A stretch of DNA of 49,373 bases from a virus (IMGVR_UViG_3300017613_000725:1-49373); one strand, 5' to 3'. Numbered from the stretch's first letter, positions 1 to 23,588 are shown. Numbers and translations are program-made. Notes: generated from the sequence alone by a model not told the origin.

Positions 1-77
1 GCCCTTTAATACAGATATGCTTTCATCAACAGGCAAAAGGATAAAGTTAGACGGTTCGGAATTTCCGTTTACGTCAA
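1..77. repeat. 77-bp terminal direct repeat, identical to 49297..49373; overlap that closes a circular or terminally redundant genome of 49,296 bp
   Basis: gccctttaatacagatatgctttcatcaac...ccgtttacgtcaa occurs at both window ends, base for base. Confidence 0.95.
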
Positions 78-346
78 AATGGAGTGTTCTACAGAGATTC
101 GCAGAGAGTAAAGCAGCCCCTACGGCTGGGTTGATAATAAACTTTTTGAAAAACGAAACATTTATGGGCGAAGATTTAACTGCTGGCAATGTTGCCAACG
201 ATTTACTAATGCCCTTATATTTAGATGATTTATACGAGGCTTACAAAATAGACGGTATGGAAGGTGCTATGATAACCGCACCCGGATTCTTTGGTGTAGG
301 CGTACAAACTTATAAAGCTAAAAAAGGAACAACTAAATTACCATAA
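1..346 (+). CDS. 3' end of the giant internal-virion-like protein gene that starts at 44861 and wraps through the terminal repeat
   Basis: The frame with codon starts at 2,5,8... is the same frame as 44861 after mapping 49297 to 1. Track ORF 17..346 is only the part after an internal Met. Stop at 344-346. Confidence 0.85.
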   Translation, partial: PFNTDMLSSTGKRIKLDGSEFPFTSKWSVLQRFAESKAAPTAGLIINFLKNETFMGEDLTAGNVANDLLMPLYLDDLYEAYKIDGMEGAMITAPGFFGVGVQTYKAKKGTTKLP

Positions 347-387
347 ATAGAAATTCAACAACAAGGGAAACAATAGAGAGGTAAGCA

Positions 388-864
388 ATGAAAAAGCTAA
401 TTTTATTAGTATTACTAATGGCAGGATTCACGCTTGGGCAATCAAGCGGTGAACCCTTTTTCAATGGTAAGCAAATAGGCGGTGGGACGGTGTGGAGCGA
501 TACGCTCAGTTATAACAACGGAGCCGGGACAAGCGATTCTGTGCTAATATTCAATGTGAATTTCAGCCACGATTGGTACAGATTTATAGCAGAGGGGGAC
601 ACCAACACCCTCGCGGATTCGTTTTATGTTGAGCACGGGTCTGTGAGATACGATATAGGCGGTTCGGCGGTGGACACTATTTGGGGGAGCTGGGCTACTG
701 TTAAAGATTCTGTTTGGGGTGATATAAACACAATGATAAACAATACGGTGGGGAAAGATTTCCTTCTGTTTAGTCCCGTGGCACAACTACTCAGGTTCAC
801 ACTATTAAACCATAGGGGTAGTTCGCCTAATAGAAGTGTTCGTCTCACGATACAAGGCATATAG
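388..864 (+). CDS. secreted protein (Sec signal peptide, Gln at +1)
   Basis: SD-like GAGAGG upstream; N-terminus MKKLILLVLLMAGFTLG|QSS. Confidence 0.7.
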   Translation: MKKLILLVLLMAGFTLGQSSGEPFFNGKQIGGGTVWSDTLSYNNGAGTSDSVLIFNVNFSHDWYRFIAEGDTNTLADSFYVEHGSVRYDIGGSAVDTIWGSWATVKDSVWGDINTMINNTVGKDFLLFSPVAQLLRFTLLNHRGSSPNRSVRLTIQGI

Positions 865-866
865 GG

Positions 867-3401
867 ATGAAATATTTATTATTCTTAATATTTTGTTTCC
901 CTTTATTCGCACAAGAATATATTTCTGTAAGCGTGATGGGGGGAGATAAGACCAATCTTGATTTCCCCGTGACTACGGATTACACTGCTCACGAAATACA
1001 GTTTGTAGTAAAGGGCAGCCCCGGCGGGGGTAGATTATTACAAAGAGATAACGATCAAGTATCAGGCGGGGATTCTTCACAGGTTTATGTTACAGCTACG
1101 AATATACGAGTAATCCTTGACGCCACGAATACAGATAACTGGACTGCCAGAAACTATTATTACGATATAGAGCAAAGAGGCACAGATACCACGACTATCT
1201 TTATAGGAAATTTTACGGTTTTACAAGATATATCTTCCCCAACTGATGGGACATACCCTGCGTTCCCTCTTTATGTTGTCGCATTAGATACGCCCACCTA
1301 TTCACCCTCTTTCTTAATAGGGCAGGATGCAGATAACGGGTGGGATGTTGTTGGTAAGGGTGCGTTTACGGATTCGCTTTTGGGGATAAAAACATTAAAT
1401 GGCTATACGGGTACAAATGACTCTATTAAATTAGCTGCTGCTTTAACTGCTTTGGGCACGGGGGCAAGTTTGTATTTCCCGCCAGGGACTACTTATGACG
1501 TTGGTACTCATACGATTGACCTGAATGTAATGATTCCGAAAGGAGCTATATTAGACGGTAATTTAACCTTTGCGAGAACAAGCAGTATAATGGCGGGAGA
1601 ATATCAAATATTTGCTGATTCTTGTGTCGCCGAGAGAGAATATTTTGCACATATAGAATGGTTCGGTGATAATGATTCACTTGATACTGGCTACAACGAT
1701 GAATTACGCAGGGCTGTTGAGTTCCTTAAATTTGGGGGTACGTTAGATTTAACGGACTCTATTGCGTTAAATAAAGACCTTCATTTATTTATTGCTGATA
1801 ATACTACTTTACAAAATGGAAGTTTTGTTTCTAACTATCCCGATTATGATGATTATACACACTTGAAAGTATTATCAAGATCGTATAGAGACCAAGAAGA
1901 TGATATACTCTCAAGCCCAAGCGTTCTTAATCATAAAGAGGGGTTGAACTTGTCTGCGGTAGCAACGAAGGGAGATTATTATGTTTTAGTTGATAGTGCC
2001 TCTAACGCTACGGCAGGTGATATAATATTTATCACAAATACTGAAAGCACCTATGGTTCTGATGGAGAAATGAATAGAGTTTATCGAGTAAACGGAGACA
2101 CGCTTTTCTTAAATACTTTAATAGCAAGAACACACAATGCAGATGATTCTATTTATGTGTTTTATGCCTTAAAGAATTTTACCGTTAGAAACATAACTTT
2201 TCATCTTAAGGGGCAGGGAATAGCTTGTGTATATACTTACTTTTCAGAGAACACGCATTATGATAATTTAATATTATATAATGATGGGCTTACGAGAACT
2301 GCTAATGGGGGGTCTAATGGCTATGGGTTAAGGTTAGATTATTCTTATGCTGGGAAGATGGAAAACTGTGAGAGCTATGAACACACTTATGGGTTTTATA
2401 CTGATAACTCTCGCTTGGTAGATATAATTGACTGTAAGGGGTTTGATGGTTGGCACGCTTTTGAGGGGACTAACGGTAATTGGGATATTCTTTACCAAAG
2501 TTGCGTAGCGACAAATGACCATTACGGCTTTAAGGCACATTCGGGCGGCAGTTATCAATATAATGATTGCAAGGTTATAAACGGATTAGGCGCACAGTTT
2601 ACAGGGCATAAAGTAATAGTTAATAACTTTGTTGTTACGGGCGAGATGGATGCTACGCAAAACAGAAATGCTTGGAATCAAACAATCGCAAGTATCACTT
2701 ATGATGCAGCAGAATTTTATTGGGATGGCGGTATAGTAGAGGTAGACACATTTAGGACTATTCTGGCTGGCGGTGGTGGTGTTGGCTCAAGTCATATTTC
2801 CGAGATAAAGAATGTAACGTTCAAAATAGGTGGCAATTCAGTAATGAGGGTAGGCTGGAAAGATAGTCTTTCTAACTTTGAGAATAATACTGTAATATTG
2901 AAAGATAATGTAACAACCGGAGCTGCTATTGAATTCTTAACAGATACGGCGGCTATACAAATTATAAAAGGAAATGAATTTAGAAATTTTATTACAAGAA
3001 GCTTAGACCTCTATGCCTACGGTAAGACATACTTTATAAACAATTTATTAACTGGGAGAGTCTTAAATATAGACAATAGCAATTATATCCAGAATGGATT
3101 AGTGAGTGTAAATAATGTTTCGGGTTATCCGTCTGATTTTGAAGATTATACGGGGAACTTCTATTTCAATAATAATACAATAAATGTTGAGGACACAGAT
3201 TCGGTTTATTATGTGCTTTACGGAGACAACTGTGAACCAGCATCTATATCAAGAAATGATTTTTACGGTTCAGATTATTTAAGAAGCATAGTTGGGGTAG
3301 CTGACACAATCGAAGTAGCGGCTTATAATTACATAGAGGGAAGTGCTACTATGTGGTATGCTTCAGTAGCGACAATAGATTCATTAAATATAAATGATTG
3401 A
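867..3401 (+). CDS. beta-helix (pectate-lyase-like) polysaccharide depolymerase / tailspike candidate with an N-terminal signal peptide
   Basis: 844 aa; MKYLLFLIFCFPLFA|QEY; SLYFPPGTTYDVG motif typical of pectate_lyase_3-type beta-helices; N/G/T-rich repetitive body. Confidence 0.6.
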   Translation: MKYLLFLIFCFPLFAQEYISVSVMGGDKTNLDFPVTTDYTAHEIQFVVKGSPGGGRLLQRDNDQVSGGDSSQVYVTATNIRVILDATNTDNWTARNYYYDIEQRGTDTTTIFIGNFTVLQDISSPTDGTYPAFPLYVVALDTPTYSPSFLIGQDADNGWDVVGKGAFTDSLLGIKTLNGYTGTNDSIKLAAALTALGTGASLYFPPGTTYDVGTHTIDLNVMIPKGAILDGNLTFARTSSIMAGEYQIFADSCVAEREYFAHIEWFGDNDSLDTGYNDELRRAVEFLKFGGTLDLTDSIALNKDLHLFIADNTTLQNGSFVSNYPDYDDYTHLKVLSRSYRDQEDDILSSPSVLNHKEGLNLSAVATKGDYYVLVDSASNATAGDIIFITNTESTYGSDGEMNRVYRVNGDTLFLNTLIARTHNADDSIYVFYALKNFTVRNITFHLKGQGIACVYTYFSENTHYDNLILYNDGLTRTANGGSNGYGLRLDYSYAGKMENCESYEHTYGFYTDNSRLVDIIDCKGFDGWHAFEGTNGNWDILYQSCVATNDHYGFKAHSGGSYQYNDCKVINGLGAQFTGHKVIVNNFVVTGEMDATQNRNAWNQTIASITYDAAEFYWDGGIVEVDTFRTILAGGGGVGSSHISEIKNVTFKIGGNSVMRVGWKDSLSNFENNTVILKDNVTTGAAIEFLTDTAAIQIIKGNEFRNFITRSLDLYAYGKTYFINNLLTGRVLNIDNSNYIQNGLVSVNNVSGYPSDFEDYTGNFYFNNNTINVEDTDSVYYVLYGDNCEPASISRNDFYGSDYLRSIVGVADTIEVAAYNYIEGSATMWYASVATIDSLNIND

Positions 3402-3408
3402 GGTAACA

Positions 3409-4251
3409 ATGAAAATTATTTTAATAGTGTTATTTTCTTTTATAACGCTTAATGCACAGAACTTGCTTTTGTTTTATGATGATGCGGGAGTTACAGTTGA
3501 TGCAGAAGCACAAGCATATTTCGATGCACTTTCCACGCCACTATCTGAAAACAGACAAGATACCATAAATCAATTTGTATTGATGTTAAAAGATTCTCTT
3601 TCAATAACAAACTTATCTGATTTCTTTTTACGATTAAATTTAGACGCTAACGAAACAGAAGAATCAAGTTTGACTGGGTTGGTTTATCCTGATTCAGCGA
3701 CAACAGAAGGCGGCTCATTAGCTTGGGCTGTTGACGTAGGATGGACTGGTTCAACAAATGTAGCGAATCATTTGAACAGTCATTTTAATCCCGCCACAGA
3801 TGCAATAATAGGTGGGCAAGATGATATTAGTTATGGCATTACATTGGCTACAAATTTAAATGGTGTAGGATATGCACTTGGTGCAGTAGGAACTCAATAT
3901 GTTTTGTTCAGACCAAGAAATAGCGGAAGTAGTGCTACTTATATAAATAATAAGAATCTAAGTGCTCAAGCTGGTATTACAACCTCAATAGGGCATCATA
4001 TTATAACTCGTACTGGTGCAAGTACGGGGGCAGGTTATGTCAATGGAACCGTCTCAACTACAATATCCACCACATCTGTAGCTGCTTCTGATATAGATAT
4101 TTATTTCTTAGCGAGTAATGGTATCGGTGGGCTTGCTTGGGTTGAAAGAGCAAGATTTATTTCCATAGGAGTTACACAAGAACAAGCAAGGAAAATAACA
4201 AATTGCATTGAATGGTATTTAGATGCCATTGGTGCAGGGATTATACCGTGA
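3409..4251 (+). CDS. secreted protein (signal peptide, Gln at +1)
   Basis: Start moved to the ATG after GAGG; MKIILIVLFSFITLNA|QNL. Confidence 0.65.
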   Translation: MKIILIVLFSFITLNAQNLLLFYDDAGVTVDAEAQAYFDALSTPLSENRQDTINQFVLMLKDSLSITNLSDFFLRLNLDANETEESSLTGLVYPDSATTEGGSLAWAVDVGWTGSTNVANHLNSHFNPATDAIIGGQDDISYGITLATNLNGVGYALGAVGTQYVLFRPRNSGSSATYINNKNLSAQAGITTSIGHHIITRTGASTGAGYVNGTVSTTISTTSVAASDIDIYFLASNGIGGLAWVERARFISIGVTQEQARKITNCIEWYLDAIGAGIIP

Positions 4252-4438
4252 TAAAACTTTAATGAGAAAGCGGAAATACATCAAAAAGTTATTAAGACGG
4301 CTTCAATATGATATGGGCAATATTATAACGAAGTCATTTGAAGCAGAAGAAAAACCAATTACAGAAGGATATGTAATGTCTGTGAGGTATAAAAATGCGA
4401 AGTTTACTACAAACCCTGATTCATTTTGTAAGGAGTAA
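4223..4438 (+). CDS. small basic hypothetical protein (alternative start 4262)
   Basis: Track ORF fills the gap between neighbouring genes; no clear RBS. Confidence 0.35.
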   Translation: MPLVQGLYRDKTLMRKRKYIKKLLRRLQYDMGNIITKSFEAEEKPITEGYVMSVRYKNAKFTTNPDSFCKE

Positions 4439-4442
4439 AATT

Positions 4443-4859
4443 ATGAAACGAATATTAGTATCGATTATTTTTTTAATGGTTGCTGTAATGTGTAACGGAC
4501 AGCCAAACACTTCAACTACTATTGAGGTGGGGATAGTTGATCCGCAACCAGATAAACATTATGAGGTATTTTTAGAAGTTAAAAGCGATAGCTTAACTTC
4601 GCAACTAATTGACGGGGTGGATTACTTAGACCCAGACGTATCTGCTTTAATTGTTACGCTTACAAACATTCACACAGTTGCAGATACTTTGCTTGGCGAA
4701 GTTACTTATCAAGATTTAACTTATGAAAGATTTGTAAAGGGCGGGCTTGTGCAGGTAGATAATTCAACAATGAAATACTCTGCAATGCGGGTAAGCTATT
4801 GGACTTGGTTAGATATGGTTGAGCCGAATAATGCTGGATTTTTTATAAGGAGAAAATAA
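4443..4859 (+). CDS. secreted protein (signal peptide, Gln at +1)
   Basis: AAGGAG SD then ATG; MKRILVSIIFLMVAVMCNG|QPN. Confidence 0.65.
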   Translation: MKRILVSIIFLMVAVMCNGQPNTSTTIEVGIVDPQPDKHYEVFLEVKSDSLTSQLIDGVDYLDPDVSALIVTLTNIHTVADTLLGEVTYQDLTYERFVKGGLVQVDNSTMKYSAMRVSYWTWLDMVEPNNAGFFIRRK

Positions 4860-4866
4860 AAGCTTT

Positions 4867-5241
4867 ATGTACAAAAGTATATATATATATACAATATTAC
4901 TTAGTTCGTTTGCTTTAGCACAGGATACTCTTTATTCGCATAGGATATTGCTGACCTTTAATGAGCCGATGCAAAGAGTCGAGTTGTTTAACGAAGCAAA
5001 TTATACTGTCTTTGATAGCTCGCTTAATGAAATAGAAATATATCTTGTGGGGATAGTAGAGGGCGATACCGCAGTAGTTATTTACACTGAGTTTCTTAAT
5101 TATAAAACTGATTATGCGGTTAGAGTTTTTAATGTGAGAGATACTTCTGATAATATAATCAATTTAGAAAAGAATACAGCCTGGACTTATTTTGGAGGGT
5201 TTGACCCCAATGAACAACAACCATATTTGATAATCAGATGA
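4867..5241 (+). CDS. secreted protein (signal peptide, Gln at +1)
   Basis: MYKSIYIYTILLSSFALA|QDT; carries a (TA)7 tract in codons 4-9. Confidence 0.6.
   Translation: MYKSIYIYTILLSSFALAQDTLYSHRILLTFNEPMQRVELFNEANYTVFDSSLNEIEIYLVGIVEGDTAVVIYTEFLNYKTDYAVRVFNVRDTSDNIINLEKNTAWTYFGGFDPNEQQPYLIIR
4878..4891. repeat. (TA)7 dinucleotide microsatellite at the 5' end of CDS 4867..5241
   Basis: tatatatatatata read directly from the sequence. Confidence 0.9.
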
Positions 5242-5591
5242 ATTATTTTTTAATAATATTGTTAATAGTGATTGCAAGCTGGCGTGAAGTTCAGATACTT
5301 ATTGATAGGGATAGCTGGAAGGGTACAAGCAGAATCCCTTTGTGGTATATAGACCAGAATAGCAAAGAGAAAATATTATGGTTGTTCCCGAAAAAGAACC
5401 TTGATTCGTTTCACGTTTCGAATGGTTTATTTACGTTGATTTTGATACATATATTATATACGAATAACATTCTACCTGAACTTTTATATGTGTTTTGTGA
5501 TACCCTAACTCACATTTTACATATAATAGCTTATTGGCTTATATGGATGCAAATACGAAACATAGTTATGAAGGTAAATTACCGGAGATAA
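5238..5591 (+). CDS. multi-pass membrane protein
   Basis: ATGA overlap with the upstream stop; several hydrophobic segments. Confidence 0.55.
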   Translation: MNYFLIILLIVIASWREVQILIDRDSWKGTSRIPLWYIDQNSKEKILWLFPKKNLDSFHVSNGLFTLILIHILYTNNILPELLYVFCDTLTHILHIIAYWLIWMQIRNIVMKVNYRR

Positions 5592-5594
5592 AGG

Positions 5595-5990
5595 ATGAAT
5601 AATTTAACCATTTTAAGAGAATTAACAAACTCTTTGCCTTTGCTTGAAGACACTATAAAGAAGAAGAAAAACAATTATATAGATTACGATGCAATGGATG
5701 GGAAGGAATATCAGGGCAGGGGTATTTACAAAAGCGAACAGGTGGCGATTCAAAGGGTGGTTATGGAGAGGGGAACTGAAATCCCAGAACATAATCACAA
5801 AGAAATGGAATATATTATTGTGGTGAGTGGGAAGTTTGAATTACAATGCGAAGGTAAGCCTGATAGAATATGTCAGCATCAAGATTGTATGGTATTTGAC
5901 CCCATGGTTAAACACTCTGGTTTAATGTTGGAAGATACAGAAATAATTGCTGTGGTTATACCCGCAGGGGAAGGTTATCCAGATGCCTGA
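5595..5990 (+). CDS. cupin-domain protein
   Basis: GTEIPEHNHKEMEYIIVVSG fits cupin motif 1, G(x)5HxH(x)3E(x)6G. Confidence 0.7.
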   Translation: MNNLTILRELTNSLPLLEDTIKKKKNNYIDYDAMDGKEYQGRGIYKSEQVAIQRVVMERGTEIPEHNHKEMEYIIVVSGKFELQCEGKPDRICQHQDCMVFDPMVKHSGLMLEDTEIIAVVIPAGEGYPDA

Positions 5991-6195
5991 AAGTCCTAAT
6001 GGTTGGAACGAGTGGTCTAAATACGTTCTAAAAGAACTTGAAAGATTAAACGGCTGTTACGAACAAATTGATAAAAAAGTAGATAAGATTGAGCAGGAAA
6101 TAGCAATGTTAAAGGTTAAGTCTGGTGTGTGGGGTTTGGTCGGCGGGCTTATACCTGTTGTGATAGCTTTAATATTTATATTCTTAAAACAATAA
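5983..6195 (+). CDS. coiled-coil protein with a C-terminal membrane anchor (XhlA-like topology; lysis-associated candidate)
   Basis: Start at ATG 5983, overlapping the cupin stop; KELERLNGCYEQIDKKVDKIEQEIAMLK followed by GVWGLVGGLIPVVIALIFIFL. Confidence 0.45.
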   Translation: MPESPNGWNEWSKYVLKELERLNGCYEQIDKKVDKIEQEIAMLKVKSGVWGLVGGLIPVVIALIFIFLKQ

Positions 6196-6196
6196 A

Positions 6197-6454
6197 ATGT
6201 TTAAGTGGACAAAAGAAATACTGCTCACCTTGGCGAAGAAATGTAACCCAAAACAAGCATTTCTTTTATTGGGTATGGTAATATTTTTCACAGGTGGCTA
6301 CTTTATATTGGATAGAATTTTAGATTACAGCGTAGTCGCAGAAGCAAGTGAAGTGCCTGACAGCGTTGTAGTGCCCAAGACAAGAATAATAGCTGACGCA
6401 GAATATCATAGAAACATTTACGAACCTGGATTAAAAGTTGAACAAGCAAAATAG
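6197..6454 (+). CDS. small membrane protein
   Basis: Hydrophobic segment FLLLGMVIFFTGGYFIL; tiles with its neighbours. Confidence 0.55.
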   Translation: MFKWTKEILLTLAKKCNPKQAFLLLGMVIFFTGGYFILDRILDYSVVAEASEVPDSVVVPKTRIIADAEYHRNIYEPGLKVEQAK

Positions 6455-6463
6455 GAGAACAAA

Positions 6464-6586
6464 ATGACACAAAAAACAAAAAAGATTTGGATAGGAGTAA
6501 TATGGTTTGTTTTAGGCAATTTAGCTATGTACTTCTTACATTCACCAGCACAAAAATTAGTTAAACTAATAGAAGGGATATTCTAA
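6464..6586 (+). CDS. 40-aa single-TM protein (holin-like size)
   Basis: GGAGAA SD then ATG 6464; IWIGVIWFVLGNLAMYFL; below the track cutoff. Confidence 0.45.
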   Translation: MTQKTKKIWIGVIWFVLGNLAMYFLHSPAQKLVKLIEGIF

Positions 6587-6750
6587 TGATCGGATGGAGA
6601 AAACTTATAGCGTTTATATTAACGCTGGCATCTTATACAGGGTTATTGTTCGCAAGAGACTTTGACCCGTTTGCACTTGGCACAGGACTTGTGCTATTAG
6701 CTGGCACATTTTTTGCTACGAATGTTGCGGAGCATTTAGCAAAAAAATAA
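6586..6750 (+). CDS. 54-aa two-TM protein (holin candidate)
   Basis: TAATG overlap with the upstream gene; two hydrophobic helices. Confidence 0.45.
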   Translation: MIGWRKLIAFILTLASYTGLLFARDFDPFALGTGLVLLAGTFFATNVAEHLAKK

Positions 6751-6752
6751 AT

Positions 6753-6780
6753 TTGACATTACCAATATTTTTATTATATT
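6753..6780 (+). promoter_or_regulatory. sigma70-type promoter candidate, TTGACA-N16-TATATT
   Basis: TTGACA at 6753-6758 and TATATT at 6775-6780, directly after the stop of the preceding operon. Confidence 0.4.
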
Positions 6781-6787
6781 GGTGTTA

Positions 6788-6932
6788 TGAATAACTCTGA
6801 CAAGTATCATTATTTAATATCGTGTCTGCCGAGTCGCTTCTGCGTCTTGGGTAGCAAGCCAGACACTTTAGTTGCCCTCATAATTATAAAGGTTTCAGTC
6901 AGAGTTTCCTTTAATTTGTGAGGGCTTTTTTT
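6788..6932 (+). ncRNA. candidate ~145-nt structured small RNA lying between the promoter candidate and an intrinsic terminator
   Basis: Stem-loop GTGTCTG(6822-28)/CAGACAC(6860-66), then a long terminator hairpin. No credible ORF: only a 9-codon ATG ORF, and the track ORF 6810..7001(-) lacks context. Confidence 0.3.
6874..6932 (+). terminator. intrinsic terminator
   Basis: GCCCTCA(6874-80)...TGAGGGC(6919-25) with inner AAAGG/CCTTT pairing, followed by T7 (6926-32). Confidence 0.6.
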
Positions 6933-6947
6933 ATGTGGCGAAACAAA

Positions 6948-7022
6948 AAATAACTGGCGGCGAATGATATGTCTGTAACCATAGGCGATCTCTCCCAACA
7001 CAAGATGGTCAGTTTGTTATTT
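6948..7022 (+). repeat. possible outlying copy of the junction unit (AAATAAC...GTTATTT)
   Basis: 7-bp inverted repeat AAATAAC(6948-54)/GTTATTT(7016-22); GGTCAGTTTGTTAT resembles the 3' box; lies 33 nt upstream of ATG 7055. Confidence 0.3.
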
Positions 7023-7054
7023 CTGACTCGCCACTAAATATTAAGAGGTAAGAT

Positions 7055-7420
7055 ATGAACTGGGATTTAATCAAGCAAAAATATCCGAAGGCGTGGGATA
7101 ACTTGTTTGAAATGTTTAACGATGGAATTTTAGAAAGCGAAATAACCTTTGAAAATGAACCGACTTATATCTCAGATATTATCCAGTATGAGAAGCAAAT
7201 ACCATTATTGTTTGGCAGAATCCTCTACGACTTCTTTGATGAGCGGGGGATAATAATAAACGTAGAATATACCGATAAAGATTTGTGGGCTGGGATTCTT
7301 TACAATAAAGATGCTGTTTGTATTTTAGACGATGTTTATACGGAGGGGGCAGAAACCCGCACCGAAGCAGAAACCGCAGCATTTACAAAAGCATTTGAAT
7401 TATTAGAGGAAAGATTATGA
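7055..7420 (+). CDS. hypothetical protein
   Basis: GAGG SD; ORF tiles with the downstream ATGA overlap. Confidence 0.65.
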   Translation: MNWDLIKQKYPKAWDNLFEMFNDGILESEITFENEPTYISDIIQYEKQIPLLFGRILYDFFDERGIIINVEYTDKDLWAGILYNKDAVCILDDVYTEGAETRTEAETAAFTKAFELLEERL

Positions 7421-7770
7421 AAAGCGATTTAACAAAGTTTATGCTTATACTGATAATCGGAGTATTCGCAGGGCTATTTGTAGGCAAATCTTGCCAAGAA
7501 GACCCGAACAAAGCGATTTTAGATATGATGGACAAACATAGACAAACGATTCTCGATTCGCTTATTGCAAATCGGGAGTTTTACGTGGCGAGGGCGGATA
7601 GTGGAAACTTAGAAAGAACTATTATCAAGAATTATTACAACGAGACATATTACAAAATTGATTCGCTTTACAATCTTGATTCATTACTTATACGGGCTAT
7701 CGTTAGATTCTGGGCTGATAGTGCTTCTAAGGTTTTAGAAATTAAACCAGATTGGAAAGGAGAATGGTAA
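7417..7770 (+). CDS. membrane-anchored hypothetical protein
   Basis: N-terminal TM segment FMLILIIGVFAGLFVG. Confidence 0.6.
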   Translation: MKSDLTKFMLILIIGVFAGLFVGKSCQEDPNKAILDMMDKHRQTILDSLIANREFYVARADSGNLERTIIKNYYNETYYKIDSLYNLDSLLIRAIVRFWADSASKVLEIKPDWKGEW

Positions 7771-7973
7771 TGACGGAATTAGAAGTTAAAGATTATATTG
7801 GTGAAGAAAATTGGGATAGTTTCTGTGAATGGATGCGGGGGCAAACAGTAGGGGCGAAGTCTAAGCCAGGAGGAGGTTATGAGGCAGACTACTATGAGTG
7901 GGATGTGAAAGCCTTTAAAGATAAGATTGATACTGGTTATGACAGGCAAGAAAATCCACTAACTTGGGATTGA
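7770..7973 (+). CDS. hypothetical protein
   Basis: Start moved to the ATG overlapping the upstream TAA (TAATG). Confidence 0.55.
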   Translation: MTELEVKDYIGEENWDSFCEWMRGQTVGAKSKPGGGYEADYYEWDVKAFKDKIDTGYDRQENPLTWD

Positions 7974-7974
7974 T

Positions 7975-8319
7975 ATGAAAACTTTAATATTTCTTATAAT
8001 TTTATCTGGGTTGACGTTCAGCCAAGACTACTCTAAATATTCCAAATCACCCCTAACATTGGGGGAGCTAAAAACAATCGCCTTAATCCTACCAAGAGTA
8101 TTAGAGCAGCAGGAAATTATAGCATCATACGAGCAAGAGAACATAGCCCTAAGAAAAGTCATTGAATTGGATAACAATTCCATCGACATATTAAACTTAC
8201 GTGTCGAAGGACTTGAAGCAATAGCCGAAGCGAACAAACCGGACTTCCTGCAAGAATATACAATGATTGCCATTTATATAGTTGTCTCGTTCTTAGTGGG
8301 GCTGGCTGTGGCATTATGA
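7975..8319 (+). CDS. signal peptide + coiled coil + C-terminal TM protein (unimolecular-spanin-like topology)
   Basis: MKTLIFLIILSGLTFS|QDY; central heptad-like region; C-terminus IAIYIVVSFLVGLAVAL. Confidence 0.55.
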   Translation: MKTLIFLIILSGLTFSQDYSKYSKSPLTLGELKTIALILPRVLEQQEIIASYEQENIALRKVIELDNNSIDILNLRVEGLEAIAEANKPDFLQEYTMIAIYIVVSFLVGLAVAL

Positions 8320-8555
8320 ACCAACCAGAATACATTTGCTTTGATTGTGCTAAAGGGCTAAGGTTACTTGATGTGGCGACTATGCACGTAGGACATTGCG
8401 ATGTGTGTGGTGAGGATGGCAAAGAGGTAGCACCCGGAAGAAAGTATGGCTATCCAGCTATTTGTAAGAAAGACGGACTTGTTAAACCAATTCGTAAGAT
8501 GGGCGGGCTGGTTTGCCCTAAATGCAGGGTTGTGTTAATTGCGTCAACCCATTGA
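8316..8555 (+). CDS. zinc-ribbon protein
   Basis: CFDC...HCDVCG...CPKC cysteine pairs. Confidence 0.55.
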   Translation: MNQPEYICFDCAKGLRLLDVATMHVGHCDVCGEDGKEVAPGRKYGYPAICKKDGLVKPIRKMGGLVCPKCRVVLIASTH

Positions 8556-8584
8556 CTGTTTTATTAACAACCAACGAGGAAGTT

Positions 8585-9421
8585 ATGAACATTAAAAATA
8601 TAGTCGTAATCTCTGACACACATTTTGGATGCCAACTTGGTGTTTGTAAAAAAATAAGATTAGATCACGGCGGGCATTATACCCCATCAAGGTTACAAAA
8701 GACTTTAGGCGTTTGGTGGGACATATTTTGGAGTGAATGGATACCACAAGCAACCAGGGGCAATGATTTTATTTTAGTCCACAATGGGGATATCATCGAT
8801 GGCATTCATCATAAAGCAACCACCCAAATATCCCACAATATAAATGACCAAAAGAACCTTGCTTTAGAAATGTTACAACCAGTTATAGATTTACCACACT
8901 GCAAAGGATACTATCAAATAAGAGGGACAGAAGCACACGCAGGGCAAGCACAGGAATATGAAGAAAATATAGCTCAACAATTAGGGGCTATAAAAAATGA
9001 GGACGGGCAGTATTCAAGATATGATTTGTGGTTAAAGTTTGGGGAGCATAAATTACTTGCTCACTTTGCACATCATATCGGGACAACTAATTCTGCAAGT
9101 TATGAGTCAACGGCAGTGCATAAAGAATATATTGAAGCTTGTGTTGAAGCAGGAAGGTGGGGGTTAAGCCCGCCAGATTGTGTTGTTCGTTCTCATAGGC
9201 ATAGATTTTACAAAACAGAGCTACCCTCTAAGAATGATAATGCAATTTCAGTGGTGACTCCAAGCTGGCAATTAAAAACACCCTTTGTTTGGAAGTTAGG
9301 GATGGGCAGAAGCTCAACTCCACAGATAGGCGGCATTGTAATTCGGGAGGGCACAGAAGTTAATATTTATTGCCGTCAAAAGGTTTGGAGCATTGAACGA
9401 TCTAAAGAGGTGCTGGTATAA
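8585..9421 (+). CDS. calcineurin-like metallophosphoesterase
   Basis: Start at ATG 8585 after GAGGA; motifs ISDTHFG, NGDIIDG, GTEAH, SHRH. Confidence 0.6.
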   Translation: MNIKNIVVISDTHFGCQLGVCKKIRLDHGGHYTPSRLQKTLGVWWDIFWSEWIPQATRGNDFILVHNGDIIDGIHHKATTQISHNINDQKNLALEMLQPVIDLPHCKGYYQIRGTEAHAGQAQEYEENIAQQLGAIKNEDGQYSRYDLWLKFGEHKLLAHFAHHIGTTNSASYESTAVHKEYIEACVEAGRWGLSPPDCVVRSHRHRFYKTELPSKNDNAISVVTPSWQLKTPFVWKLGMGRSSTPQIGGIVIREGTEVNIYCRQKVWSIERSKEVLV

Positions 9422-10173
9422 CTCGATTTGAAAAGAAAATAGAGAAAGCAATAAAAGCGTTAGAGTCATTTGAGCCGAAAGATGGTTATTATGTAGCGTT
9501 CTCAGGTGGGAAGGATAGTATAGTAATTTACGATTTGGTTAAAAGGGCGGGCGTGAAGTATGATGTTCACCATCACGTTACCACAATAGACCCGCCTGAG
9601 TTAATGAGGTTTATTAAAAAAGAATACTCAGAGGTAGATAGACATAAACCTGATTTGTCAATGTTTGAATTAGTTACTAAGAAAAAATCTTTGCCAACAA
9701 GGATAGGGCGTTTTTGCTGCGAATACTTAAAAGAGAGTGGCGGGAATAATAGGGTTATCATTTTAGGGATAAGATCAGAAGAAAGCAATAGTCGTAAAGA
9801 CAGAAAATTATTTGAATGGAATACAAAGCAAAATAAATTGATGTTTAATATTATTGTAGATTGGACAGAGAAAGATGTTTGGGAGTATATAGATTCAAAC
9901 AAATTAAAATACCCAGCAAGTTATGATACTGGCAAAAATAGACTTGGTTGTATCGGATGCCCCTTTAAAGGCGGCAAAAGAATGAAGAAAGAATTTGCAG
10001 AATATCCTAATATTAAGAAGGGATATATAAAAGCAATCCAGAAAGCACAAAATAATGGCGGATTTTCTTCTTTCAACGGGCATAATGCGGAACAAATATT
10101 TGATTGGTGGACTTCTGGTTTATCAGTAAAAGATTATCTACAAACATTAAAACAAGAGACGTTAAAATTATGA
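9406..10173 (+). CDS. PAPS-reductase-like PP-loop ATP pyrophosphatase; start codon unresolved
   Basis: SGGKDS P-loop at 9502-9519, then CCEYLK and GCIGCP motifs. Frame is open from 9406. The first ATG/GTG/TTG in frame is TTG 9535, downstream of the P-loop. Confidence 0.8.
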   Translation, partial: RGAGITRFEKKIEKAIKALESFEPKDGYYVAFSGGKDSIVIYDLVKRAGVKYDVHHHVTTIDPPELMRFIKKEYSEVDRHKPDLSMFELVTKKKSLPTRIGRFCCEYLKESGGNNRVIILGIRSEESNSRKDRKLFEWNTKQNKLMFNIIVDWTEKDVWEYIDSNKLKYPASYDTGKNRLGCIGCPFKGGKRMKKEFAEYPNIKKGYIKAIQKAQNNGGFSSFNGHNAEQIFDWWTSGLSVKDYLQTLKQETLKL

Positions 10174-11211: not shown

Positions 11212-12270
11212 ATGTCAAACAATAAAACGTGCCTTGTGACAGAGTGTAATAGGGAAAAACACGTTAGAGGATTTTGTAGAACACATTATAACTGCTACCT
11301 CAAAGGCATCGACCCTTATGGCTATGAAATTGGGGAATTTTTATACGATGGGGCAGAAAGAACCGGAGAAAAATATAATTACTGGACAATTATAAATTAT
11401 ATAGATACTAAACACTATGGCAAAAAGAAAGTTGCCACAAGGAGATATTTATGTGAATGTAGGTGTGGCAATAAAAAAATTATTCCAATAAATAATTTAG
11501 TTTCTGGTAAATCAGCTTCTTGCGGGTGTAAGGAATATAAATTATACAAGGACTATTCTATACGAGTTGCTGAGAGTCCACTATATAATATGTGGGCGGG
11601 TATGATGGATAGATGTTATAATAACAAATCTGGTGCTTATAAAAATTATGGTGGCAGGGGGATAACAGTTTATAGTTTGTGGCACAACGCAGAAAATTTT
11701 ATAAAAGATATTACAAAGCTTTTAGGCAAGAAACCGTCTAAAAAACACTCCTTAGATAGAGTAAGAAATAATGAGGGCTACTTTCCTGATAATGTTAGGT
11801 GGGCTACACAGAAACAGCAAATGAATAATACAAGATACTCAGATAAATTAACTGCTGGCAGGGTTGCTGAAAAGACAGGATATTCAAGAGAACGGATAAG
11901 ACAGCTTACTTATTATACATCATCTTCGCCAAGCAACGAATTCCCCCTAAATAAATATATACAAGAAATTTGCCGACCAGAGGGCGACAAAAAAACACAC
12001 TTTATATATAAACCAGAAGTTATACAATATTTAATAGATAGGAGAAATGGCAAAATGGAAAAGACGTTATTATTTGTGCCCTTTGAGTACGGTAAATTTA
12101 TGAGTGACTATGTTATAACCCTTCCGCAGCTTGCTCAAATTCTTGATACCACGGAAACATCACTAAGGTCTCATATCAATAGAGACAAGATACGGAAAGA
12201 ACATTATCACCTGTTAAAAACCAGGGGCTACGTTGTTGAAAAATATCTTCAATCCACATTAAAAAATTAG
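11212..12270 (+). CDS. multi-domain DNA-binding protein: N-terminal Cys/His cluster, AP2/HNH-associated-type middle region, sigma70-region-4-like HTH and a second HTH
   Basis: CLVTECNREKHVRGFCRTHY; YNMWAGMMDRCYN...YGGRGITV...LDRVRNNEGYFPDNVRWAT; AEKTGYSRERIRQL; LPQLAQILDTTETSLRSHI. Preceded by a 137-bp AT-rich gap. Confidence 0.55.
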   Translation: MSNNKTCLVTECNREKHVRGFCRTHYNCYLKGIDPYGYEIGEFLYDGAERTGEKYNYWTIINYIDTKHYGKKKVATRRYLCECRCGNKKIIPINNLVSGKSASCGCKEYKLYKDYSIRVAESPLYNMWAGMMDRCYNNKSGAYKNYGGRGITVYSLWHNAENFIKDITKLLGKKPSKKHSLDRVRNNEGYFPDNVRWATQKQQMNNTRYSDKLTAGRVAEKTGYSRERIRQLTYYTSSSPSNEFPLNKYIQEICRPEGDKKTHFIYKPEVIQYLIDRRNGKMEKTLLFVPFEYGKFMSDYVITLPQLAQILDTTETSLRSHINRDKIRKEHYHLLKTRGYVVEKYLQSTLKN

Positions 12271-14291: not shown

Positions 14292-14651
14292 ATGAGAATA
14301 ATCAGAATTTTAATAATAGTAAACACTTTAATATTGTTTTTTGGAGGTTGTGAATATAAGCAACCAGAGAAAGCACAGATTTACCCATTCACGGGGCAAA
14401 GTATTATTGTGAGAACCGTTAATGGGATAGATACTATCGGTGCTGTCGGATATGTCCACGACCATAAAGGAAGATTAACTATCCATACGTTGGCATATAC
14501 AATGCGGATAGAACCGGCAGACACTTTGGTTTATAATAATTTTGGAAGAGATTGGTCTGATTCTCTGGATTGTATGATTTATTTTATCACAAAGCCAAGA
14601 AAGAAAATATGGTATTATAAATCAGCCTTAATAAGTTGGGGTGTAGAATGA
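14292..14651 (+). CDS. putative lipoprotein
   Basis: MRIIRILIIVNTLILFFGGC lipobox-like sequence. Confidence 0.5.
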   Translation: MRIIRILIIVNTLILFFGGCEYKQPEKAQIYPFTGQSIIVRTVNGIDTIGAVGYVHDHKGRLTIHTLAYTMRIEPADTLVYNNFGRDWSDSLDCMIYFITKPRKKIWYYKSALISWGVE

Positions 14652-17722: not shown

Positions 17723-17843
17723 GTATAACGGCAGGGGCTTAACCGGTTGTGAAAATAGAAAGGGATAAAATGATAATAACAATTAAAGACGAATTACCAG
17801 AAGATGAAATTAAACGTATTGAACAGGTTGAACTTAGTTATAT
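17723..17843 (+). repeat. junction unit E (GTATAAC...GTTATAT, 121 nt)
   Basis: 5' GTATAACGGCAGGGGCTTAAC, a 21-nt sequence identical to 19912-19932; 3' box CAGGTTGAACTTAGTTATAT inside the 5' end of the methyltransferase CDS. Confidence 0.55.
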
Positions 17844-18564
17844 GTACGGTGGAGAAAAAATGGGAGTTACTTATAATAATTTCAATATTAACAGTCCGGT
17901 TGAAGCCTTGGTTAGTTTGCCATACTATGAAGAAGATGGGATAACTATATACAACGCAGATTGCCGAATAATGATGCAAGCATTACGCCCAAGTTGGATT
18001 ATTACCGATCCGCCTTATGGAATAAACTATGATGGCTCTGGATATAAAAAGTGGAGTGGGCAGAAACAGACTTGGGATAAAATTAAGAACGATGATGGAT
18101 GTTATGATTTAGAATTTCTATTTAAGGCGGAAGGGAATAAGGTGGTTTTTGGGGCGGACAATTTTATAAACTTTATAACAAGTAAAGGAAGTTGGATAAT
18201 TTGGGATAAACGGGTTAATGATAAAAACGATAAAATGTTTGGCAATCCGATTGAAATGGCTTGGAATAGTTTGGAGGGATTACACAAGATTTATAGGATA
18301 CAGCACGGCGGAGTAGTTAACGCTGATTCGATTTATGGGAATAATGAAAAAAGAGTACACCCGACACAAAAACCAGTGAGGCTATTTTATAAAGTTATTG
18401 AAGATTTTACAGAGCAGAATGATTTTATACTTGACCCGTTTATGGGAAGTGGAACGACTTTAATAGCCGCACGTAAACTTGGGCGTAAGGCAACGGGAAT
18501 TGAAATTAATAAAAAATATTGTGATATAGCAATAAGACGATTAAGCCAAATGGAAATGTTTTGA
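17770..18564 (+). CDS. DNA methyltransferase, N6_N4_Mtase family (DPPY type, probably m6A)
   Basis: ITDPPYG (motif IV), HPTQKP, DPFMGSGTT (motif I) in beta-class order. Confidence 0.9.
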   Translation: MIITIKDELPEDEIKRIEQVELSYMYGGEKMGVTYNNFNINSPVEALVSLPYYEEDGITIYNADCRIMMQALRPSWIITDPPYGINYDGSGYKKWSGQKQTWDKIKNDDGCYDLEFLFKAEGNKVVFGADNFINFITSKGSWIIWDKRVNDKNDKMFGNPIEMAWNSLEGLHKIYRIQHGGVVNADSIYGNNEKRVHPTQKPVRLFYKVIEDFTEQNDFILDPFMGSGTTLIAARKLGRKATGIEINKKYCDIAIRRLSQMEMF

Positions 18565-20329: not shown

Positions 20330-21142
20330 ATGTCTGATAAAAATGAAAATAATAATTCAGAACTGACCGAGCCAACAGGCGAAGGTCAGGTTGAGTTGCT
20401 TGTTATGTTGCGCCCGCTTCTTTACAAAATACACAATGAAGATTGTAGAGAAACTTTAGCAAAGCTACCGGCAGAGAGTATTGATTTAATAGTAACAAGC
20501 CCGCCTTATAATAAAAAGAGTGTGAACAGGAAATGTGGGAAAACTGATAGCTGGATGAAGGCGAATATAAATTATGGAACTTATAATGATGATTTACCAG
20601 AGAATGAATACCAAGAATGGCAAAAGAAAGTATTGAGGGAAATGGTGCGGGTGATAAAGCCCGAAGGAAGTATTTTTTATAACCATAAAGTTAGGATAAT
20701 AAACCACAGAGCAATAATACCAACAGAGTGGTTAAATGAATTTAATATACGGCAAGTTTTGATTTGGGATAGGGGTAATTCGCCACAGATAGCACCTATC
20801 CGATGGCTACCAACGACAGAATATATTTACTGGATTACAAAAACAAATACACAGCCTAAATTTTATAAACGTTCAAAGCATTTAGCGGAAGTATTGAGAA
20901 TATCTGCGAAACCCACAAATGACCATCCCGCACCGTTCCCTGAAGAATTGGTAGAAACGTTAATATTAAACACAACAGATGGAAGCGATGTAGTCTATGA
21001 CCCATTTAGTGGAAGTGGGACAGCCTGTAGAGTCGCAGACAGATTGGGGCGGGCTTGGTTTGGGAGTGAAATATCAGAGAGGTATTGCTCGGTAGCTTTG
21101 CGGAATATAAAAAGTGATTTATTTACTAAGGCGACAACATAA
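20330..21142 (+). CDS. DNA methyltransferase, N6_N4_Mtase family (SPPY type, possibly m4C); alternative start 20405
   Basis: VTSPPYN, HPAPFPEEL, DPFSGSGT. The 25-codon N-terminal extension consists of the repeat element. Confidence 0.9.
   Translation: MSDKNENNNSELTEPTGEGQVELLVMLRPLLYKIHNEDCRETLAKLPAESIDLIVTSPPYNKKSVNRKCGKTDSWMKANINYGTYNDDLPENEYQEWQKKVLREMVRVIKPEGSIFYNHKVRIINHRAIIPTEWLNEFNIRQVLIWDRGNSPQIAPIRWLPTTEYIYWITKTNTQPKFYKRSKHLAEVLRISAKPTNDHPAPFPEELVETLILNTTDGSDVVYDPFSGSGTACRVADRLGRAWFGSEISERYCSVALRNIKSDLFTKATT
20353..20407 (+). repeat. M2: repeat element inside the 5' end of the methyltransferase ORF
   Basis: TAATTCAGAA + CTGACC-N15-GGTCAG + TTGAGTTGCTTGTTATG. The stem differs from R1/R2 by a compensatory T:A to C:G change. 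Confidence 0.7.
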
Positions 21143-21590: not shown

Positions 21591-21706
21591 TAATGATAAT
21601 AGCAATTAGCATATTCACAGCGATAGGTATTTGCACTTGTGTGTTGTTATTCTTTGGTGCTGTTGGTGAAATTGAATCAAAAGACTTAGAAAGGAAACAT
21701 AAATGA
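21587..21706 (+). CDS. 39-aa membrane peptide
   Basis: ATGA overlaps at both ends; IMIIAISIFTAIGICTCVLLFFGAV. Confidence 0.4.
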   Translation: MIMIIAISIFTAIGICTCVLLFFGAVGEIESKDLERKHK

Positions 21707-21801
21707 GCATAAGAAAAATGGAAACTGAATTTGCTGTCATTTTTACGATTATCTGTTTAAGTGGATTGTTAGGACTGCTAATGTTCTTTGGTGTATTATG
21801 A
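21703..21801 (+). CDS. 32-aa membrane peptide
   Basis: ATGA overlaps at both ends; FAVIFTIICLSGLLGLLMFFGVL. Confidence 0.4.
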   Translation: MSIRKMETEFAVIFTIICLSGLLGLLMFFGVL

Positions 21802-22055
21802 AAACTTACCCTAAAATTGACACATATAGAGGGGAAGCGTGGACGGATGTTGTTACGAGATGGGGGGATATATTCGGCTGTAAAATTGAATTTGCTGTTA
21901 AGTGCTGCCCTGGTTGCGGAGAGAGTTGGCAGCCGATAGGAACGAGAAACAAAGGACACAAAAAGTATGATAAATTTGGGAAGGGCTGGGGTTTTGGCTT
22001 GGGGTTAAGAAAGGAGGTTTGTCCTGAGTGTGAAGAAAAAAGAAGCGAAATATAA
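21798..22055 (+). CDS. zinc-ribbon protein
   Basis: CCPGCG...CPECE. Confidence 0.55.
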   Translation: MKTYPKIDTYRGEAWTDVVTRWGDIFGCKIEFAVKCCPGCGESWQPIGTRNKGHKKYDKFGKGWGFGLGLRKEVCPECEEKRSEI

Positions 22056-22209
22056 AACAGGTACGATTTACACAATAACTGCAAAACGTTACGTTGACGG
22101 CAAAGACAAGGTTATGATCCGAGACATCAAGGGCGAAGATATCCAGAACTTCATAAAAGAGAAATTACAAAGAGCCAGACTTTTTTGGGTACACGAGAAA
22201 GATGGGTAA
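22030..22209 (+). CDS. 59-aa hypothetical protein (GTG start)
   Basis: GAAAGGAGG upstream; last rightward ORF before the convergent terminator. Confidence 0.35.
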   Translation: MKKKEAKYKTGTIYTITAKRYVDGKDKVMIRDIKGEDIQNFIKEKLQRARLFWVHEKDG

Positions 22210-22240
22210 CTTACACGCATACCCTTTTAACGAGCATAGA

Positions 22241-22265
22241 GGGGTGCTGACAGCACGAACACCCC
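22241..22265. terminator. hairpin at the convergent gene boundary
   Basis: GGGGTG...CACCCC with alternative inner GTGCTG-a-CAGCAC pairing, between the + stop at 22209 and the - stop at 22266. Confidence 0.4.
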
Positions 22266-22457
22266 CTACCCCCACTTGGCAGCTCTTAAATTTAACAGAT
22301 TTTTCAAAGTCGCAAAATTAAGATTGCCCGATTCAGTAACGATTGACACCCCATTATAGAGCTTATCTGCCTTTTCACACGCTTCTTTAGGCGTTTTAGC
22401 TTCTTGAGGTGCTTTAATACACCCTGTTTTAGTTATAGTATGGACTGTGTATATCAT
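22266..22457 (-). CDS. hypothetical protein
   Basis: Track ORF at the distal end of the leftward operon. Confidence 0.55.
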   Translation of the reverse strand: MIYTVHTITKTGCIKAPQEAKTPKEACEKADKLYNGVSIVTESGNLNFATLKNLLNLRAAKWG

Positions 22458-22465
22458 TTCTTCAC

Positions 22466-22630
22466 CTAATTTTTATTTATATGTTTAGACTCTTCTGCCC
22501 AATCCTTATGCGTGTAGTATTCGTGAGTAGATTCCATATTCTCTTTCGCTTTTTCAACAGCTACCCTCGCGACCCAGCCGACTAAGAAACCGGCAAAAGC
22601 CACACCTGCTAATATTATAATCAGTTCCAT
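22466..22630 (-). CDS. 54-aa N-terminally anchored membrane protein
   Basis: GGAG SD; MELIIILAGVAFAGFLVGWV; below the track cutoff. Confidence 0.45.
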   Translation of the reverse strand: MELIIILAGVAFAGFLVGWVARVAVEKAKENMESTHEYYTHKDWAEESKHINKN

Positions 22631-22631
22631 T

Positions 22632-22883: not shown

Positions 22884-22947
22884 CTCTTCCTCCTATATAA
22901 AATAGTTAATAAAAATATAAAATAAGGTATATCGAATTTAAGATGTT

Positions 22948-23241: not shown

Positions 23242-23265
23242 TTTGTTACCTCTTTAGTTAGTTGT

Positions 23266-23553: not shown

Positions 23554-23588
23554 TTCACACCTCTTTTAGTTGTTAAAGAAAAATTGTT

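Follow-up and report, generated by a model that had tools for sequence, protein, structure and literature searches.

Lys44 of Oenococcus phage fOg44, Lyz of P1 and R of phage 21 are made late in infection and are sent by Sec across the inner membrane before lysis. Signal-peptide proteins are also encoded beside host-recognition genes, as with Lom and Bor of lambda, Llp of T5 and Cor of phi80 and N15, which are small outer-membrane proteins or lipoproteins that are often lysogenic or early. Virion tailspike depolymerases (LKA1 gp49 and others) have, to our knowledge, no signal peptide and are assembled onto virions in the cytoplasm, and Sec export of virion proteins is not known to us from any tailed phage. 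In Bacteroidota, the Gln exposed at position +1 of signal peptidase I substrates is cyclised to pyroglutamate, a relation published in 2018 as the Q-rule, and Q-rule proteins of phages were published in 2023 for prophages of Porphyromonas gingivalis, temperate phages that encode five signal-peptide proteins of this kind of unknown function (Matrishin et al. 2023, PMC10367356). Here, we describe a block of five genes at positions 388-5241 of a 49,373-nucleotide viral contig (IMGVR_UViG_3300017613_000725:1-49373; this whole stretch is referred to as the window), the products of which are predicted to be exported by Sec and to expose Gln at +1, with a sixth such protein encoded at 7975.

As in the P. 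gingivalis prophage proteins, which were read as an adaptation to Sec and glutaminyl cyclase, a predicted signal peptidase I cut exposes Gln in the block proteins. Unlike that set, which belongs to a classical Bacteroidia host, the block is a conserved late-operon cassette at a receptor-binding locus that includes a tailspike-type candidate depolymerase, is rich in O-glycosylation sequons and lies in a phage that uses Shine-Dalgarno (SD) sequences. The 844-aa protein of the block has in common with virion tailspike depolymerases the beta-helix, a conserved N-terminus joined to an exchangeable catalytic part and a gene located behind the putative ejection protein, and differs from them in carrying an export signal. 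Sec-exported and signal-anchor-release (SAR) endolysins are peptidoglycan hydrolases, whereas no muralytic domain is detected in the cassette members; these are large, soluble-type signal peptidase I substrates of a late operon, unlike the Lom, Bor, Llp and Cor morons. Like the O-glycosylation substrates of Bacteroidota, the cassette proteins are non-cytoplasmic in type and carry sequons well above chance, the glycans being here only predicted; phages go unmentioned in a review of that O-glycosylation (PMC12871550). In the literature searched, we found no precedent for exported tail fibres or depolymerases or for an exported receptor-locus cassette with tailspike homologues, no coupling of such a cassette to O-glycosylation sequons, and no host placement of an uncultured phage by the combination of Gln at +1, sequons and SD frequency. 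Host-recognition proteins of tailed phages are assumed to be cytoplasmic, and at this locus tailspike homologues bear export signals that are conserved across dozens of clusters, along with two maturation marks specific to a host lineage.

Export signals and O-glycosylation sequons

The six open reading frames (ORFs) listed in the initial annotation are all present, on the plus strand, with the N-termini quoted there. With a slash at the predicted cleavage site, they encode a 158-aa protein (388-864; MKKLILLVLLMAGFTLG/QSS), an 844-aa protein (867-3401; MKYLLFLIFCFPLFA/QEY), and a third (3394-4251; ...MKIILIVLFSFITLNA/QNL), fourth (4395-4859; ...MKRILVSIIFLMVAVMCNG/QPN), fifth (4867-5241; MYKSIYIYTILLSSFALA/QDT) and sixth protein (7975-8319; MKTLIFLIILSGLTFS/QDY). 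Cleavage sites were predicted by a heuristic that scores the n-, h- and c-regions and the residues at -3 and -1, applied to the 83 called genes of the window, and these six are the only N-termini of signal peptidase I type among them. In the predicted signal peptides K or R lies close to the N-terminus, the hydrophobic core spans 9-13 residues, -1 is A, G or S and -3 is mostly small; they are 15-19 residues long, a length that suits signal peptides and is too short for membrane anchors. The description of the first five genes as consecutive holds unless the 71-aa signal-less ORF at 4223-4438, between the third and the fourth, is itself a gene. The remaining envelope-type N-termini of the window are lipoprotein-like (two) or membrane helices (several). 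The product of 14292-14651 has a clear lipobox (MRIIRILIIVNTLILFFGG/CEYK, cut at FFGG/C), and that of 7417-7770 (...GLFVGKS/CQEDP) has an acidic stretch past the Cys that resembles the surface-lipoprotein export signal of Bacteroidota.

A lipobox Cys is found at +1 in none of the six proteins and Gln in all of them. Gln makes up 3.7% of the window proteome, and the probability of six out of six by chance is 2.7e-9. It is 5e-7 at a Q-value of 9%, that of most Chlorobi, and 0.13 at a Q-value of 71%, the mean of Bacteroidetes (PMC5837995); the observed pattern is thus ordinary only for a host with a high Q-value. When 49 signal-like N-termini from the window and the related loci are scored by a predictor blind to the +1 residue, the best-ranked site exposes Gln in 25 of them, and in the others a site formed by a small residue and Gln mostly follows 2-5 residues onward.

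The signal is retained in two protein families. The 158-aa protein (TLG/QSS), the constant first gene of the cassette, has 40 homologues in public metagenomes at 34-74% identity; the leader is present in all 40, with A, G or S at -1 in every one, and Gln18 is invariant, one of only 15 columns to be so. For the 844-aa protein (LFA/QEY), exhaustive searching returned 76 cluster representatives, 53 of which contain its N-terminal domain. By the heuristic, Gln follows the leader in 43 of these 53 and a leader is absent in eight; no convincing leader ends in a residue other than Gln. P0083 is truncated at the N-terminus and also reads ..NYA/QTS; in all, nine representatives scored as signal-less. 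Of the 44 signal-positive representatives 43 have Gln at +1, the exception being P0113, in which the heuristic probably flagged its non-Gln site falsely. Two of the related loci, L001 and L002, encode this Gln by CAG and CAA and differ synonymously in their signal-peptide codons, which indicates that the leader is under constraint as a translated sequence. The heuristic and the conservation among homologues thus both support signal-peptidase-I-type N-termini with Gln at +1, as had been proposed.

The sequon D-(S/T)-(A/I/L/V/M/T) directs the general O-glycosylation of Bacteroidota, is used only in non-cytoplasmic proteins and is enriched mainly in that group (PMC8550257, PMC12871550). With expectations from residue shuffles of each protein and Poisson probabilities, the five block proteins hold 24 sequons where 7.3 are expected (ratio 3.3, P = 7.5e-7), the 844-aa protein alone accounting for 13 against 4.4 expected, and 24 exported proteins of the relatives hold 128 against 54.9 (ratio 2.3, P = 3e-17). 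No significant deviation is seen in the non-exported structural proteins of the window (13 against 19.3, ratio 0.67) or of the relatives (28 against 29.9, ratio 0.94), or in beta-helix homologues without a leader (26 against 32.7, ratio 0.80). Control motifs are flat in the exported sets, namely E-S/T-hydrophobic, N-S/T-hydrophobic, D-S/T-other, D-A/G-hydrophobic, G-S/T-hydrophobic and the reversed motif. Within the 158-aa family the strict sequon occurs at D38 in 40 of 40 sequences, at D50 in 37, at D77 in 17 and at D107 in 35, and a relaxed form is found at all four sites in 40 of 40, these Asp residues being invariant. The sequons, which are predicted glycosylation sites, may therefore be taken as a second mark of extracytoplasmic maturation, independent of Gln at +1. 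Export and host-type maturation of the cassette proteins are in this sense well supported on sequence grounds, and cleavage, cyclisation and glycosylation would be the events that we infer to take place in the host.

Cassette proteins and related loci

The 844-aa protein combines an immunoglobulin (Ig)-like domain (residues ~20-120), a linker and a right-handed beta-helix. The linker ALDTPTYSPSFLIGQDADNGWDVV (ALDTPxYSPSFxIGQDxDNxWDVV) is the most conserved stretch. In the AlphaFold2 model the core at residues 360-590 exceeds a predicted local distance difference test (pLDDT) score of 90, whereas the linker is poorly modelled; the mean pLDDT is 65, and 277 of the 844 residues fall below 50. The best nine Foldseek matches of this model are phage tailspikes or depolymerases, among them K64-1 S2-4 (7e-11), phi297 gp61, LKA1 gp49, P560, KP34p57 and AP22 gp54, followed by non-phage beta-helix enzymes; E-values range from 7e-11 to 4e-5, with TM-scores of only 0.16-0.37. 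Model and structural matches thus agree with the earlier proposal of a depolymerase candidate, in that the protein is of the tailspike/depolymerase beta-helix type. The L005 homologue P0003 matches PHROG tail-spike families (7.6e-18), and an exported protein of L007 matches a family of virion structural proteins (1e-15). Among isolated phages the 844-aa protein matched one Vibrio phage beta-helix, and an Ig-domain profile run against PDB sequences gave nothing significant. The first ~190 residues are ~55% identical among proteins whose remaining 500-1,000 residues are unrelated, and in some relatives the linker follows the leader directly, the Ig domain being skipped. This pairing of a conserved N-terminus with an exchanged C-terminus resembles tailspike design, in which the N-terminus would presumably bind the particle. 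The export signal with its conserved Gln at +1 nevertheless sets the 844-aa protein apart from ordinary tailspikes. A dual start, with a leaderless form made from the conserved Met24, was considered and rejected, since no SD sequence precedes this codon and the Met is absent in other subgroups.

For the 158-aa protein, AlphaFold2 gives an all-beta sandwich (pLDDT 78), for which Foldseek searches of PDB and BFVD return only generic jelly-roll matches (TM-score at most 0.6), including carbohydrate-binding modules, a gingipain adhesin domain, YomS, small uncharacterised phage proteins and a tail accessory protein. The third gene, which opens at 3394, most likely starts at 3409 (Met6, with GAGG at -9), and 3409-4251 then encodes an exported 280-aa protein (LNA/QNL) without a family match. 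The fourth, opening at 4395, most likely starts at 4443 (Met17, with AAGGAG upstream), so that 4443-4859 encodes an exported 138-aa protein (CNG/QPN); both are variable cargo. The fifth, an exported 124-aa protein (ALA/QDT; 4867-5241), is Ig-like of the Big_5 family (PF13205, E = 3.5e-5, above the gathering score). For the six proteins and four relatives, no type IX sorting domain (TIGR04183/TIGR04131, PF18962) was found in NCBIfam or Pfam at E-values up to 0.1, and no NCBIfam family of any kind; Pfam, PHROG and NCBIfam gave no peptidoglycan hydrolase domain in any cassette member. A 117-aa membrane protein (5238-5591, plus strand) closes the cassette.

The block directly follows a giant lysine- and glutamate-rich ORF of 1,593 aa, the stop codon of which lies 42 bases ahead. 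The first 77 bases of the window (1-77) are identical to the last 77 (49297-49373), so that the contig closes as a circle of 49,296 bp, and this ORF (44861-49373, continuing at 1-346, plus strand) spans the junction, which is why it is absent from ORF listings of the linear window. It has no Pfam match; its size and position suggest a putative internal virion (ejection) protein. Downstream, a terminator-like hairpin with a T-run (6690-6708) and an intergenic sigma-70-like promoter matching the consensus at 11 of 12 positions (6753-6780), both on the plus strand and both consensus matches only, together mark a likely 3' end of the late operon near 6690-6780. This suggests, from sequence, that the operon ends with the five block proteins, the membrane protein, a cupin and three small membrane proteins. 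The block occupies the receptor-binding position of a podovirus, as first described, after the giant putative ejection protein and where the late operon probably ends.

The same arrangement recurs in seven related contigs that carry a 158-aa homologue (L001, L002/L003, L004, L005, L006, L007 and L008). In six of the seven, a giant protein is followed by an exported protein of ~155 aa and two to four more exported proteins, all with Gln at +1; homologues of the giant ORF lie directly upstream of the exported cassette in L001, L002, L004, L005, L006 and L007. Three to five exported genes are present per locus, and every one that was read in L001-L008 has Gln at +1. L007 resembles the window in having five in a row, and next to them it encodes a counterpart of the 5238-5591 membrane protein, which is also kept in L005. 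Neighbouring structural genes are 40-50% identical among these relatives while the cassette cargo is replaced outright; LamG-type cargo also occurs in relatives, and the genes next to the 158-aa homologue in L004, L006 and L007 encode partners without the Ig domain and linker. L008 has another capsid family (PHROG 247) and other tail genes, yet carries a 158-aa homologue and an Ig-domain protein, after which two more exported proteins with Gln at +1 stand at the end of the structural genes; the presence of the cassette, its N-terminal modules intact, on this unrelated backbone suggests that it is independent of any one tail architecture. In the same contig, positions 1477-1962 encode an exported 161-aa protein with Gln at +1 (..FMSNA/QPYRV) directly after the major capsid gene, the usual place of a decoration protein. 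L007 and L008 were found in IMG/VR only through an alignment of the 158-aa family; IMG/VR scans with the single terminase, 844-aa and 372-aa proteins and with an alignment of the nozzle-like protein returned nothing.

Some leaders are hidden by gene calling. The gene call of L009 opens at an internal Met, whereas translation from a TTG further upstream gives ..LLIC/QKSD. P0004 and P0120 are examples of calls truncated at an internal Met, and in P0120 a TTG start upstream encodes a signal peptide. TTG starts are seen in several cassette genes (L001 4358, L002 3918, L009 9911). As public calls that start at an internal Met conceal the leader, surveys of called proteins would undercount exported phage proteins. 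The Ig-domain protein of L011 is truly leaderless, with a strong SD sequence, and follows a Mu gp36-like head-completion gene; of the three genes after it, the first two clearly encode exported proteins with Gln at +1, and the third is similar by eye. The idea that signal-less relatives prove a cytoplasmic ancestor is weakened by the hidden leader of L009 and by these neighbours in L011. P0114 and P0102, both signal-less Ig-domain homologues, have no match among isolated phages.

Role of the cassette and host lineage

Tentatively, we place first a reading in which the cassette proteins are free, non-virion factors, periplasmic and then released at lysis. The late-operon cassette would be exported by Sec and cut by signal peptidase I before the invariant Gln, and the host would add its extracytoplasmic modifications, pyroglutamate at the N-terminus and O-glycans on D-S/T-hydrophobic motifs. 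The cargo would form a host-surface toolkit made up of the jelly-roll protein, the Ig-domain beta-helix depolymerase and small Ig-like or unassigned modules, its enzymatic and binding parts being exchanged freely between related phages. Build-up would take place in the periplasm late in infection, where the depolymerase could cut nascent surface polysaccharide, and lysis would free protease-resistant enzymes and binders that strip the surroundings of the burst cell of receptor or matrix glycans. Free rather than virion-bound action, and the substrate, are what we infer here; the former is supported by the independence of tail type, by the varying partners and by the leaderless fibre-like protein encoded upstream (38870-39988), which could serve the virion. 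Several points weigh against such free factors. With neither a type IX domain nor a lipid anchor, the proteins would not reach the surface before lysis, so that the advantage of exporting a free enzyme would have to lie in the modification itself or in an unnamed periplasmic substrate. The hallmarks of receptor-binding proteins are also present (the position after the ejection protein, the swapped C-terminus and the PHROG tail-spike matches), and the structural module has no other clearly variable receptor-binding candidate. In addition, common ancestry makes the 40 of 40 and 43 of 44 counts non-independent events, and Ig-domain homologues scored as signal-less also show a 1.9-fold sequon excess, at least one member of that control set (P0120) having a hidden leader. 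More doubtful is that the exported and matured proteins are virion receptor-binding proteins, which would fold in the periplasm and dock onto cytoplasmically assembled particles only after holin lesions have connected both compartments and before the outer membrane ruptures. Two unrelated phage backbones carry the proteins at the receptor-binding locus, virion tailspikes are their nearest structural matches and the family matches of P0003 and of the L007 protein are to tail-spike and virion-structural families; the conserved Ig domain and linker with a swapped catalytic domain, and the outright replacement of cargo beside conserved structural genes, are as in tailspikes, and the Ig family (PHROG 1084/5774) adjoins Mu gp36-like head-completion genes in other phages. 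However, docking would have to fit into the brief interval of lysis, the N-terminal modules are shared between phages of two tail types, the 158-aa protein has partners without the Ig domain and linker in three relatives, the signal-less fibre-like protein is available in the window, and the literature searched offers no precedent for Sec-exported virion proteins of tailed phages. Receptor-binding proteins made outside the cytoplasm, with two-compartment virion assembly and virions wearing host-type glycans, are in our view rather unlikely; the glycosyltransferase and methyltransferase of the structural module might then retune that virion glycan. If the proteins were virion parts as well, textbook assembly would need a second compartment, and virion docking, once shown, would make the finding categorically new.

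Less probable again is a cassette for lysis, superinfection exclusion or lysogenic conversion, composed of exported wall-degrading enzymes or receptor-masking factors. Envelope morons often adjoin tail-fibre genes, small holin-like membrane proteins follow the cassette, and Pfam scans of 39 window ORFs detected no endolysin domain. The Q-rule proteins of the P. gingivalis prophages have been read as envelope modifiers (PMC10367356). However, L006 keeps the cassette despite its own GTA-type holin and PF11860 muramidase, encoded ~3.5 kb downstream of it, no peptidoglycan-hydrolase domain was detected in any member, and no integrase was found among the ORFs scanned with the family libraries. The cassette proteins are moreover large, tailspike-type products of a late operon without a lipobox, unlike the small early or lysogenic exclusion lipoproteins. 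The initial annotation had also raised the question of virion proteins with uncleaved anchors, that is, of cytoplasmic virion components with hydrophobic leaders in which Gln is coincidental or structural. The cytoplasmic assembly of virions speaks for this, but the Gln at +1 is invariant across two families, the -3/-1 rule is kept in 40 of 40 sequences, leaders of 15-19 residues fall short of anchor length, the sequon enrichment marks these proteins specifically and no SD sequence precedes the internal Met24 that a leaderless form would use. Since the invariance of Gln at +1 and the selection of periplasmic glycosylation sites can hardly be explained except by cleavage and by exposure beyond the cytoplasm, uncleaved N-termini are disfavoured and we regard them as very improbable. 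If the cassette proteins are exported, the phages would use host stabilising modifications, pyroglutamate and O-glycans, for surface-active proteins, and the depolymerases of such phages may need periplasmic expression for activity.

The sixth protein does not readily join this set. It has 114 aa (TFS/QDY; 7975-8319, plus strand), no sequon, a C-terminal membrane helix and a middle part that appears coiled-coil-like on reading of the sequence rather than by prediction. A spanin has an inner-membrane anchor and a periplasmic coiled coil, and in the unimolecular type an outer-membrane lipid anchor; the C-terminal helix and the middle part could correspond to the first two, while the N-terminus is of signal peptidase I type rather than a lipobox, and the protein has no family match. 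It thus has a predicted signal peptide, as noted earlier, whereas membership of the same functional set is unlikely given the probable location in the next transcription unit and the lack of a sequon; it is possibly a separate, lysis-related protein that obeys the same host rule.

Use of SD sequences bears on the host. Of the 83 genes, 43% are preceded at a distance of 5-17 bases by a four-base SD core, compared with 9% of random positions, and strong five-base cores are present at 24% against 1.9%, with a peak at -12 to -9. In published figures, Bacteroidia, Flavobacteriia, Cytophagia, Chitinophagia and Sphingobacteriia use SD sequences in 1-2% of genes, and the shares for Ignavibacteria, Chlorobia, Fibrobacteria and Calditrichae are 32%, 13%, 37% and 51%, respectively (PMC10783764), while Q-values are 77% in Ignavibacterium album and 55% in Chloroherpeton (PMC5837995). 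As SD use is ~32% in Ignavibacteria and the Q-value of I. album is high, SD use is no argument against a Q-rule host. Of the two counter-indications against a Bacteroidota host given in the initial annotation, strong SD sequences are therefore borne out as an observation, and near-consensus sigma-70 promoters are not: there are 38 sigma-70-like matches in 1-9500 where 34 are expected, which is chance level, although the match at 11 of 12 positions lies in an intergenic gap, and terminator counts are likewise at chance level. The proposed Q-rule reading is upheld by the invariance of Gln at +1 in two families and by the sequon enrichment, and together with SD use these point to an SD-using host of the Bacteroidota lineage, most likely, as far as sequence can tell, of the Ignavibacteria type. 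A classical host of the Bacteroidia class (Bacteroidales, Flavobacteriales, Cytophagales and others) would suit the groups in which the Q-rule and O-glycosylation were defined (PMC5837995, PMC12871550), and the 31-43% G+C of the window is compatible with it. The 43% SD use at correct spacing, against 1-2% in those classes (PMC10783764), makes it quite improbable, as do the control Bacteroides phage B40-8, in which SD cores precede five of 46 genes (11%, the background level), and the Bacteroidia -7 promoter motif TAnnTTTG, which is not enriched in the window (42 against 62 expected). B40-8 has no tail proteins with Gln at +1. Profile scans of a genome collection with the 158-aa family and with the Ig-linker family were both empty, and two of the relatives come from deep-sea sediment metagenomes of Loki's Castle. 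Gln at +1 and sequon enrichment could thus serve to predict the hosts of uncultured viruses, with SD use separating classes within Bacteroidota.

Genome setting

The window is a tailed-phage genome that also has genes for replication, recombination and methylases. It has no close relative among isolated phages, all matches of the large terminase (29245-30852) being at most 31% identical, and no tRNA genes. The portal (31034-33181) and a capsid protein of the SU10 family (34822-36153; Pfam PF17236, 1.4e-16) follow the terminase, and a 734-aa nozzle-like protein (40706-42910) and an adaptor-like protein (39985-40704) are among the products of the tail genes. No tail tube, sheath or tape-measure protein was recognised in the window, which fits a podovirus but falls short of proof. 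The signal-less 372-aa protein at 38870-39988 has a weak tail-fibre match (PHROG 588, E = 2e-4), and sequence searches of PDB with the 372-, 239- and 734-aa tail proteins were uninformative. The three small membrane proteins at the end of the late operon (5947-6195, 6197-6454 and 6586-6750, plus strand) have transmembrane segments and resemble holins in size and topology alone.

The structural module contains, after the capsid and before the tail genes, a methyltransferase-like gene (36958-37452) and a two-domain glycosyltransferase, GT2-like plus GT1 (37425-38870), which may modify the capsid or could retune the lipid-linked glycan of the host for the exported proteins. Upstream of the giant protein, a 257-aa structural protein (43093-43866) ends in an endosialidase-chaperone-like domain, and its L007 homologue (4361-5227) contains ..SDERLKENI..; these features suggest a self-cleaving trimeric needle or fibre. 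Two DNA methyltransferases (17749-18564 and 20330-21142), a 3'-phosphoadenosine-5'-phosphosulfate (PAPS)-reductase-like protein (9535-10173) and an HNH endonuclease (11212-12270) point to DNA modification or anti-restriction. Finally, small minus-strand genes at 21600-25900 coincide with reversed GC and AT skew, and this region is probably a divergently transcribed early or regulatory region.

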